Shown here: in pieces, positions 16,240 through 58,703 of the stretch
Numbering within the stretch: position 1 is the stretch's first letter
How the letters are laid out: each line of letters opens with the position of its first letter
Notes under the pieces: generated by a model
Database searches by the model: none
What the model was told of the DNA's origin: nothing
What the model saw: only the letters and a program-made list of their open reading frames with translations
Position numbers and translations under genes: made by a program
NCBI RefSeq assembly: GCF_053078305.1
Contig: NZ_CP166879.1
DNA length: 64,000 nucleotides
Direction: 5' to 3' (one strand)

Positions 16240-16280
16240 ACGATCGATAAAACAGATATCGATCGTTACTATCGATCGTT
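16240..16280 (+). promoter_or_regulatory. agn43 (flu) regulatory region with three GATC sites (OxyR / Dam phase-variation switch)
   Basis: GATC at 16242, 16261 and 16274 within cgatcgataaaacagatatcgatcgttactatcgatcg, about 220 bp upstream of the flu start; matches the known agn43 switch architecture. Confidence 0.75.
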
Positions 16281-16494
16281 TATAGTGGTTAATGGTCTGC
16301 GAAAAGGCAGTTGAATCTCTTCATCATGCAGAACGGAATTGCACAAAACGGACTGATACTTCTCTGGCGGATGAGAGAGGGGAAGCATTTATGTCCGGGA
16401 AAAACCACTGTATCTGACCATGCTGTTTTGTACCTGCCGGTATCCACATTTGTGGGTACCGGCTTTTTTATTCACCCTCTGTAAGGAAAAGCTG

Positions 16495-50860: not shown

Positions 50861-51811
50861 TCAGCCTGCGATAGCACCAACAACCTGTAATACTTCGTCA
50901 CGCGCCTGTTCTGGTTTTTCACTATCAAGCCAGTGAACCCCTTCCCAACCACGCAGCCAGGTTATCTGCCGCTTCGCCAACTGTCTCGTGGCGCAAACAC
51001 CTCGATAAACCATTTCATCGTATGAGATTTCGCCTTCAAGGTAAGACCACATCTGGCGATAACCCACGCAACGAATGGAAGGCAAGTCCGTATGCAAATC
51101 TCCTCGGGCAAAAAGCGCCCGGACTTCTGCTTCAAAACCTGAAGCCAACATCTGATGAAAACGCTGCTCAATGCGTTGATGGAGCAGTTCACGGCTCGCC
51201 GGGGCGATGGCGAACTGATGCACCTGATACGGTAGAGCGTCTCCTGACGTTTGCGTCAGTTCCGTTAAAGTTTTACCCGAAATGAAAAAAACTTCCAGTG
51301 CCCGGGAAAGCCTTTGTGGATCATTTGGATGAATCCTTGCTGCCGCAACCGGATCGATCTCCTGAAGTTGACGATGCAATGACTCCCAACCTTGCTCTGC
51401 CGCCTGTTGCTCAATTCTGGCCCGTACTTCCGGGTCTGCCGACGGTAGCGGCGACAACCCTTCCAGCAATGCCTTGAAATACAACATCGTACCGCCCACT
51501 AACAGTGGGATCCGCCCCGCCGCGGTGATATCGGCCATTTCCGCCAGCGCATCGCGGCGAAAATCAGCAGCCGAGTAAGCCTGCGACGGATCGCGAATAT
51601 CCAGCAATCGGTGCGGCGCGGCGAGTAACTCTTCAGCGTTCGGCTTCGCCGTCCCGATATCCATCCCTTTGTAAATAAGGGCAGAATCAACGCTTATCAA
51701 CTCTACTGGTAAAATTTTACGCAGCTCAATGGCTAACGCCGTTTTACCGGAGGCCGTCGGCCCCATCAAAAAAATCGCCTTAGGCAGGCTCGCCTTACTG
51801 ATATCACTCAT
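50861..51811 (-). CDS. miaA: tRNA dimethylallyltransferase
   Basis: 316 aa with GPTASGKT P-loop. Confidence 0.95.
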
Positions 51812-53651
51812 CTTTCAGGGCTTTTATCGCCGGATGTAAATCAACAGATTGTAACAGACCACCCGGCGGCGTTTTCACAAGTTGCGGACATAACCGTTCC
51901 ACGTCCGCCAGCAGGGTTATGGCCTGTGCCATTGACCACTGCGCATGTTCGCTCATCAGATTTCGTGCAATCCACTGCGCAATATTGCCAGGTTCGAATA
52001 CGGACTGCTTCGCCAGGTAGCCTATCAGTTCAGGAATCAAGATTTGTAAATTTTGTTGGCGTAAGGGTAAAGGCACGGCCCTGATGGTCACATGCTGTGC
52101 ATCTGACTGGAAATCAATACCCAATTCCGCCAGGGCAGACTGCGCTTTTTCTAATGCCGATTTTTCTTCGCCAGAAACTTTTAGCCGCAACGGAATCAGC
52201 AACGGCTGGGCGCAAACGGGCGCTTCACCCGGCGTCAGTTGTACCTGACGCAGCCAACGTTCTGCCACTGGCAAGGCTAAAAGTGAAATGTTGCCGTCGC
52301 GCTCCAGCAACGCACAGTCGGAATGGACGATAGTCAGTACCCGACCAAAACTCTGACTGTTCGCCGCAAGTGCAGGTTCCTGCGGTTCCGGCGCTTTTGG
52401 TTTTTGCATCGGCGCGGGCGTTTGCAAAAGCTGGCGATACACTTCACCTTGCTGTTTCTGGTAACCTGGCTGCGCATTCGGCCAGGGGGCAGCCGGACGA
52501 CTGCCTGATGCTGGCGCAGGAGTGTAGCGCGGAGCTACTGGCTCACGAACTGCCGGTTCAGCAAAGTGATTGCGCCCCGCCGCCACGCGGTTTTCCGGAA
52601 TGGCACGCGGTGCAGGTTGTGGTTCATCGTCCAGCGGTAGCGGCGTTTCCAGTTGCTGTTGTAGCACGCTCAGCACGCCCTGATAGATAAAATCATGCAC
52701 CAGACGCGACTGATGGAAACGCACTTCGTGTTTGGCGGGGTGTACGTTGACGTCCACCTGATGCGGGTCGATCTCCAGATACAGCACAAATGCCGGTTGT
52801 TGATCGGCCCCCAGTTTGTCTTCACAGGCCTGGCGGATCGCATGATTGATCAGGCGATCGCGCATCATGCGACCATTCACGTAGCAATACTGAATTTCTG
52901 CCAGGGCGGGCGTGGTGTGATTCGGATCGGCCACCCAGCCGCGCAGGGTGAGATCGCCGTGTTGCCATTCAATCGCCAGCGCTTGTTCGAGAAAAGCGGT
53001 GCCACAAATCGCGCCTAAGCGCCGTTCTTTTTGCCCGCCTTCCGGCACTGCGCGGTACTGACGCACAATTTTACCGTTATGCGACAGGTTGATCGTGACG
53101 TCGAAACGCGCCAGCGCAATGCGGCGGATGATTTCATCGATATGGTTAAATTCGGTTTTCTCGGTGCGCAGGAATTTGCGCCGCGCCGGGGTGTTGTAGA
53201 ACAGATCCAGCACCTCCAGCGTCGTTCCCACCGGATGCGCCGCCGGTTTAACCGTCACGTCCATATCGCGCCCTTCGGCATAGGCCTGCCAGGCTTCCTG
53301 CTGTTCTGCGGTGCGTGAAGTGAGCGTCAGGCGGGAAACCGAACTGATACTCGCCAGCGCCTCACCGCGAAAGCCAAGGCTGATAATGGCTTCGAGATCG
53401 TCCAGAGAGGCGATTTTACTGGTGGCATGACGAGCCAGCGCCAGCGCCAGCTCATCTTTTTTGATACCGCAGCCGTTATCACGAATGCGGATAAGTTTCG
53501 CCCCACCGCGTTCGATATCAATATCGATACGCGTCGCACCTGCATCGAGGCTGTTTTCCACCAGTTCTTTGACTACCGACGCAGGTCGCTCGACCACCTC
53601 ACCTGCGGCAATCTGGTTCGCCAGTTGTGGCGGTAAGACCTGAATTGGCAT
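51804..53651 (-). CDS. mutL: DNA mismatch repair protein MutL
   Basis: 615 aa from [23 protein letters not shown]. Confidence 0.95.
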
Positions 53652-53660
53652 CAATCGTCC

Positions 53661-54998
53661 TTAGTTTGGCAGCGTGCGATCTGGCGTCGTCACCGTACTG
53701 GCAGTTTGTGCCGTTGCCCCCTGCGGCGCAGATTGCATCGGATGCGCAAGGAAATAATTGCGCAGGCCTTTGTAAATGGCTTCTGCCAGCTGTTGTTGGT
53801 AATCGTCGCTCGCCAGCAAACGTTCTTCGCTGTTGTTGCTGATAAAACCGGTTTCGACCAGTACTGATGGGATATCCGGCGAACGCAGAACGCCAAGGCT
53901 GGCATGTTCTGGCCGACGTTTATGTATTTCGCCAATGCGTTGCAACTGACTGATCATACTGGTCGCTACATCATACCCTACCCGCTGGGAATGACCGAAC
54001 TGTAAATCCAGCACCGCCTGGCTTAAATAGGGGTCAGACTGACTGTTCGCCAGCACATCACCCGCCCCGCCCAGCAGCTCCGACTGTTTCTCGTGCTGCT
54101 CCAGCCAGCTGGCCATTTCGCTGTTGGCGCGACGGTTAGAGAGCACCCATACGGAAGCGCCAGTCGCACTGCGGTTCGGTGCGGCATCAGCGTGAATCGA
54201 CACGAGGAAATTGGCGTTTTGCTTACGTGCCACATCACTGCGCCCCATCACCGAGATAAAGTAATCCCCGTCACGGGTTAAAACGCCTTTAAACATCGGA
54301 TCGTCATTGAGCAAAGTACGCAATTTACGCGCGATGGCGATGGTAACATTTTTCTCCCGCGTACCACCGGGGCCGATAGCGCCAGGGTCCTGACCGCCGT
54401 GTCCGGCATCAATAGCGATGATAATTTTATCGCCAGTGTTAGCCGTCGCGCGCGCTGCCGGACGCGTTACCGTATTACTGCTGATAACACCCGTAGTGCG
54501 GTTACTTTCCATTTTAAACGGATTGCGCGCCGGTTCGCTGACGCGCGGTGCGACAACCGCAGGCGTTTCAACGCGTTTCGCAACCACGGGCGGCGGAGGA
54601 GGCGGTGGCGGCACATCGGCGTTAATCGTAAAGACGACAGTGTAATTGCTGCCATTCTGCCGCTTCACCGCTTCGGTTTTACCGTTTTCGGTAAGATCGA
54701 CCACCAGCCGTAGCGTTTGTGCATCTTTAGGCGTTCCAGAGCGAATCGCCTTCACCAGATTATTGCCGCTGAACAACAACGGCAGTCCCTGAATCACGCC
54801 CGTTTGTTTGATATCGAGCGCCACGGTGCGTTTGCTTTGATGGCTAAACGCATAATCAGGATCGCCAATAAAACTCAACGTTATCCGCGCCTGTTGATTA
54901 CCGTTAGAAACCTGAATATCAGAGAGCGTCGCGGCACCCACCTGCGCGCACAGCAGCAGCAACGTCGCTACCAACCAATTTCTGATGCGATACATCAT
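53661..54998 (-). CDS. amiB: N-acetylmuramoyl-L-alanine amidase AmiB
   Basis: 445 aa from [10 protein letters not shown]; contains an eight-proline run. Confidence 0.9.
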
Positions 54999-55016: not shown

Positions 55017-56995
<1,979 letters not shown>

Positions 56996-58404: not shown

Positions 58405-58480
<76 letters not shown>

Positions 58481-58515
58481 TTGGGTGGTCTGTGCCTTAC
58501 AGCACTTTCAAATTT

Positions 58516-58591
<76 letters not shown>

Positions 58592-58627
58592 TTGGGTGGT
58601 CTGTGCTTTGCAGCACTTTTCAAATTT

Positions 58628-58703
<76 letters not shown>

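Follow-up and report, generated by a model that had tools for sequence, protein, structure and literature searches.

An EF-P-dependent run of eight prolines at the start of the interdomain linker of Escherichia coli AmiB

The window, by which is meant the whole 64-kb stretch of DNA analysed, is from Escherichia coli and carries amiB on its minus strand between tsaE and mutL (Table 1). The gene had been named AmiB in the original prediction, and this identification is confirmed by three lines of evidence: first, the NCBIfam equivalog model NF007751 (AmiB) gives 977 bits (cut-off 532), with residues 1-445 aligned to profile positions 1-445. Second, the matching locus is annotated amiB by RefSeq in 5425 of 5426 complete E. 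coli genomes. Third, the gene order nnr-tsaE-amiB-mutL-miaA-hfq-hflXKC is present, as read from the open reading frames of the window and from a 99.9% identical genome annotated by RefSeq. Over the amiB locus, K-12 strains are 99.1% identical and strain PapRG-06-5 is 99.9% identical. The mechanical list of open reading frames begins amiB five codons further upstream than the start adopted here, at TTG 55013. A search of Rfam returned no match in or near amiB, no promoter-like site was found near the proline tract described below, and a scan of the same surroundings gave one weak terminator-like site, inside tsaE, which is fewer than in shuffled sequence.

Table 1. Position of amiB, its predicted protein regions and its immediate neighbours in the window
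Feature	Coordinates	Strand	Basis
tsaE, directly upstream of amiB, same orientation	55017..55478	-	ORF list, annotation of relative
amiB CDS, 445 aa + stop, start MMYRIR	53661..54998	-	ORF list, RefSeq annotation of near-identical genomes, NF007751
Hydrophobic N-terminal region, putative signal peptide, ~residues 1-23	54930..54998	-	sequence; AF2 helix 2-16
AMIN domain, residues 24-127 (Pfam match 27-112)	54618..54929	-	PF11741; AF2 strands 24-127
AMIN as a beta domain, predicted septal targeting and peptidoglycan binding	54618..54929	-	PF11741; AF2 strands
Eight-proline tract, Pro130-Pro137	54588..54611	-	translation
Interdomain linker, residues 129-190, proline-rich, poly-proline tract at its start	54429..54614	-	AF2 pLDDT
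Amidase_3 catalytic domain, residues 194-413	53760..54419	-	PF01520, E=2.8e-48; PDB 8c0j
mutL, start 9 nt downstream of amiB stop	51804..53651	-	ORF list, annotation of relative

The remainder of the window is of two kinds. Positions 1-25000 form a variable genomic island that encodes an Ag43/Cah autotransporter and carries filamentous-haemagglutinin and ShlB-type secretion genes, together with CP4-like genes and the insertion elements IS2 and IS66; of the 5426 complete E. coli genomes, only two cover at least 80% of this part. An Rfam match to IS102 RNA (RF00124) lies in the island near the Ag43 gene, at 16240-16476 on the plus strand (74.7 bits against a gathering threshold of 46). Positions 25001-50000, with ulaA, aidB, rnr, purA and hflK, are core sequence and are covered to at least 80% in 5362 genomes. 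Three identical tandem tRNA-Gly(GCC) genes are found at 58405-58703 on the minus strand, flanked by queG and orn, an arrangement shared with other E. coli genomes.

The domains of the encoded protein follow the AmiB order: a signal peptide, recognised from sequence only, then AMIN, linker and Amidase_3. AmiB is a periplasmic protein, and residues ~1-23 of the window protein would serve as its signal peptide, a role carried over from the known periplasmic AmiB. The Pfam AMIN model (PF11741) matches residues 27-112 with 20.8 bits, barely over the cut-off of 20.5, and an AF2 model built from a 60-sequence alignment places AMIN beta-strands at residues 24-127 and begins the catalytic fold at residue 192. 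PDB entry 8c0j matches residues 190-422 (E=5e-143), and H200, E215 and H269 do not vary in the 60-sequence alignment. By homology, the protein would be expected to act as a zinc-dependent, EnvC-activated septal peptidoglycan amidase.

Minus-strand translation of 54570-54632 identified eight consecutive proline codons, Pro130-Pro137, read in order as CCG CCA CCG CCT CCT CCG CCG CCC. The run of eight prolines given in the original prediction is therefore real (translation gave eight, not fewer than three), whereas its coordinates, 54589..54612, were off by +1 nt: they take in the third base of Val129 and miss the last base of Pro137. Such a run is far above chance, since runs of at least eight prolines did not arise in any of 200,000 shuffles of the whole AmiB protein and arose in only two of 200,000 shuffles confined to residues 113-193. 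Among open stretches of at least 100 codons in all six frames, the AmiB tract is the sole run of at least four prolines in the 64-kb window, the next-longest being PPP. Tandem Repeats Finder reported no DNA tandem repeat at the tract at a score of at least 30.

In the AF2 model the tract starts two residues past the last AMIN strand. Given that the last AMIN strand stops at residue 127 and that pLDDT is low beyond them, falling below 50 at residues 131-134 and 136-188, the tract opens the interdomain linker, and its predicted location in that linker is borne out by its position between the Pfam AMIN match (27-112) and Amidase_3 (194-413). The linker, of ~60 residues, is predicted to be without fixed structure and flexible. 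The sole solved E. coli-like AmiB structure, 8c0j, spans residues 190-422 and starts past the linker, which is consequently absent from any solved structure. In a cryo-EM study of FtsEX-EnvC-AmiB from P. aeruginosa, the 40-residue linker between the AMIN and catalytic domains had to be left unmodelled, and a large relocation of AMIN by way of this linker was proposed (PMC10214136).

Comparison with reference AmiB, as the original prediction had proposed, found the same tract of eight prolines at 130-137 in K-12 AmiB (b4169; WP_000990333.1, strain DH1), which is also alike in length (445 residues), domain order and operon context and is identical in DNA over 141 nt around the tract. The window amiB differs from that of DH1 at 12 of 1338 nt, giving three amino-acid changes, none of them in the tract: T18A and P19Q in the signal peptide (54942-54947) and T163M in the linker (54510 region). 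Threonine stands at residue 163 in all the sequences inspected from E. coli, Shigella and other Escherichia.

Conservation was assessed by scanning one genome per species and translating the best 80 loci, all of them Enterobacteriaceae-like. A proline run was present at the homologous site after FT[IL]xAD in 80 of 80 species, with lengths of 3-10 and a mode of 8; the run was of at least three prolines in all 80 and of at least five in 77. Eight prolines were found in 28 species, seven in 16, six in 16, five in 12, nine in four, four in two, and ten and three in one each. At the DNA level the 80 tracts are spelled in 78 distinct ways, in which third positions are scrambled and proline is kept, and this diversity, together with the absence of a repeat detectable by Tandem Repeats Finder, indicates that selection acts on the amino acids. 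The picture changes in a wider AmiB-like set of 140 representatives at 50% identity with a recognisable DxGHG, in which the 90 residues before the catalytic domain were inspected: 126 of the 140 had two or fewer consecutive prolines, and only four had at least four, these being fragments or relatives at 79% identity or less. No poly-proline run was found in a Yersiniaceae representative. The tract is not a trait of the AmiB/AMIN-amidase family at large; it is an Enterobacteriaceae-level trait kept by amino-acid selection, the length of which drifts by whole-codon gain and loss. The view that the tract is a conserved feature of AmiB rather than a novelty thus holds for K-12 AmiB and for 80 of 80 Enterobacteriaceae species, but a length of eight is not fixed (3-10) and the tract is absent in most wider homologs.

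The codons of the tract show a further regularity. Across the 80 species, CCC stands before another proline codon of the tract in 1.5% of cases (7/471), compared with 8.7% (7/80) as last codon of the tract and 9.6% (160/1675) among the other proline codons of the same genes, and the lone CCC of the window tract is its final codon and is followed by G. It looks as if CCC is shunned within the tract so as to avoid CCC-C, a run of at least four C, although the Fisher p-value for this avoidance is descriptive only, the species being related. In runs of at least four C, +1 frameshifting and replication slippage occur readily.

A 104-codon open reading frame on the plus strand (54399..54713) reads GRRRRRWRH across the tract, and was considered as a real gene. 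The frame is open; however, it matches no Pfam family even at E<=1, it lies wholly antisense to a full-length AmiB equivalog that is annotated in 5425 genomes, and the scrambling of third positions tracks the minus-strand frame. It is rejected as a gene.

Within E. coli the tract is polymorphic. In a ranked sample of 60 genomes, 49 have the full length, one has seven prolines (O145:H28 RM13516), nine have a six-codon form and one has six prolines (SCPM-O-B-7615); strain N47 has five. The six-codon form reads PPSPPP in three of three hits fetched. It appears to be carried by ~16% of complete E. coli genomes (867/5425, the 90-95% identity band), a share inferred from the ranked sample and the identity band of a 141-nt query, with only three such hits translated. 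Forms of AmiB from E. coli and Shigella with deletions of 25-31 residues in the distal linker retain all eight prolines.

The distal linker is itself plastic. The linker of E. coli AmiB reads as two imperfect VVA(K/P)RV(S)E units; AmiB proteins of 414-420 residues from some E. coli and Shigella have in-frame deletions of 25-31 residues between VVAPR and ATANTGDK, and Escherichia whittamii AmiB (455 residues) has one extra PPVVAKRVE unit.

Taking at least three consecutive proline codons in the translated frame as a stall motif, the tract is one, having eight CCN codons in the frame of amiB. Doerfel et al., in their 2013 work in Science, reportedly tested AmiB synthesis in vitro. The PPP/PPG class of stall sequence goes back to Ude et al. 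2013 and Doerfel et al. 2013, as cited in PMC4402525. The proline run of amiB is the longest in E. coli, with eight prolines, and ribosome profiling of the wild type gave a sharp footprint peak at these prolines (PMC4402525). In a second profiling study, the amiB entries comprise six PPP motifs and one PPV, and the asymmetry scores of the amiB motifs in K-12 BW25113 are 1.0-1.24 in the wild type versus 6.7-10.5 in delta-efp, with 1.0-2.9 in delta-efpL and 3.8-6.7 in delta-efp over-expressing EfpL (PMC11611912 Suppl. Data 3, sheet B). A full-text literature search for AmiB with EF-P or proline gave PMC4402525 as the sole relevant match, and the supplements of Elgamal 2014 hold no amiB entry. 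Given that the 141 nt at window positions 54530-54670 are 100% identical to those of the K-12 derivatives C600, RR1, CJ236 and XL10-Gold, the K-12 profiling data apply to the window sequence. The tract was expected to be an EF-P-dependent stall site and, on the published K-12 data (PMC4402525, PMC11611912), the stall is real and is EF-P dependent. In wild-type cells ribosomes pause locally at the tract and show no net decrease downstream of it, and as the wild-type asymmetry is ~1 the stall is cheap when EF-P is present and may be without physiological consequence.

Other EF-P-dependent poly-proline proteins of E. coli resemble AmiB in having consecutive proline codons and an asymmetry that rises in delta-efp (PMC11611912). 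AmiB differs from them in having the longest run, of eight (PMC4402525), and in that its tract lies in the interdomain linker of an exported enzyme and not in a regulator such as CadC. AmiA and AmiC have the Amidase_3 domain in common with AmiB (NCBIfam; PDB 4bin, 8c2o), and in AmiC, too, an AMIN domain precedes a linker; however, the window protein scores far under the cut-offs of the AmiC and AmiA models. The stall motifs differ too: among the entries listed in PMC11611912, amiA has only DPG and amiC has at least EDV and PPA, compared with the six PPP of amiB.

Given the position of the tract, its conservation and its stall, it is suggested, at a probability of roughly 0.85, that the tract is a stiff polyproline spacer in the AmiB linker, with an EF-P-dependent stall as it is translated, selection on its amino acids and drift in its length; on the most likely reading, EF-P bears the cost of translating this spacer. 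Polyproline-II has a rise of ~3.1 Å per residue, and Pro130-Pro137 would most likely form a short stiff polyproline-II rod of ~25 Å over its eight residues. Such a rod would push the linker and the catalytic domain out from an AMIN domain bound to the wall. At the level of translation, its eight successive Pro-Pro peptide bonds make the tract the strongest natural site of poly-proline stalling in E. coli, and the dependence on EF-P would be a cost of the spacer and not its purpose. The periplasmic spacer of TonB is a proline-rich (Glu-Pro)n(Lys-Pro)n rod. By analogy, the AmiB tract would be a stiff extended proline segment between two functional ends; unlike the TonB rod, it is a pure homopolymer of only eight residues with a flexible stretch next to it. 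Because the length is loose (3-10) and most distant homologs are without a poly-proline run, a fixed length of rod is not essential to AmiB.

Alternatively, the tract could be without function and a neutral, low-complexity expansion produced by replication slippage in a CCN run within a tolerant linker. The whole-codon polymorphism in E. coli (8, 7, 6, 5) and among species (3-10) would be expected of such an expansion, as would the tolerance of the flanking linker to large deletions and duplications and the lack of the tract in most distant homologs. However, this is very unlikely for several reasons: first, all 80 species have the run at one homologous site under 78 synonymous spellings, which speaks of long-term purifying selection for proline and not of a recent DNA repeat. 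Second, the codons are mixed and no DNA tandem repeat is detectable by Tandem Repeats Finder. Third, the tract survives in the variants in which the linker is deleted, and a neutral tract that is costly should decay.

It may instead be the translational pause, and not the shape of the protein, for which the tract is kept. This could take two forms: a programmed delay after the signal peptide and the AMIN domain have left the ribosome, during which Sec targeting or the folding of one domain at a time could proceed, or a tie between AmiB output and EF-P, or the translation state of the cell. The pause is visible even in the wild type (PMC4402525) and is strongly EF-P dependent, a run of at least PPP, the minimal strong stall motif, is kept in 80 of 80 species, and the interrupted alleles retain stall motifs. 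Nevertheless, the wild-type asymmetry of ~1.0-1.2 implies no net attenuation as long as EF-P is available, and PPP or PPG would suffice for a pause, yet most species have six to nine prolines. Homologs outside the Enterobacteriaceae, furthermore, manage without such a tract, and there is no known condition that makes EF-P activity limiting while AmiB dosage is important, AmiA and AmiC being redundant with AmiB. The pause as a selected property is possible but unsupported, given a wild-type asymmetry of ~1, and is considered unlikely.

A consequence beyond AmiB is also conceivable, since mutL begins 9 nt past amiB and is followed on the same strand by miaA, hfq and hflXKC. Ribosomes queued at codons 130-137 could uncouple translation from transcription and allow Rho to terminate before mutL-miaA-hfq, in which case the EF-P status of the cell would tune mismatch repair, tRNA modification and Hfq levels. 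The C/G ratio of the amiB mRNA peaks at and just past the tract (C 41%, G 29%, nt 391-468), but there is no convincing rut-like stretch and G is not depleted downstream of the tract. The internal promoters of the superoperon for mutL, miaA and hfq would presumably buffer any polarity. In reporters, Rho-dependent polarity downstream of PPPPPP was seen upon loss of EF-P, yet amiB is absent from the candidate gene clusters in Table 1 of that study (PMC5021804). With a wild-type asymmetry of ~1 weighing against it as well, such an effect on the operon is the least probable of the roles considered for the tract.

The spacer whose cost is paid by EF-P is thus the preferred reading, and a more speculative reading can be drawn from the whole-codon changes in length within E. 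coli and across the Enterobacteriaceae: the length of the tract might be an evolvable dial on the dependence of amiB on EF-P and EfpL, and perhaps, by way of queued ribosomes, on the transcription that reaches mutL-miaA-hfq. This is a long shot. If true, the six-codon lineages (~16% of E. coli) would differ in the dosage of a cell-separation enzyme under translation stress and perhaps even in mismatch-repair and Hfq levels.

The tract is already known, being a documented feature of E. coli AmiB and an example of an EF-P-dependent stall, and it has little weight as a discovery. The analysis adds modest descriptive points: the tract is a trait at the level of the Enterobacteriaceae and is not family-wide, its length is polymorphic in E. 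coli, and CCC appears to be avoided within it. These points may be of use in treating amiB as a natural reporter of EF-P activity and in considering what periplasmic amidases need of their linkers.
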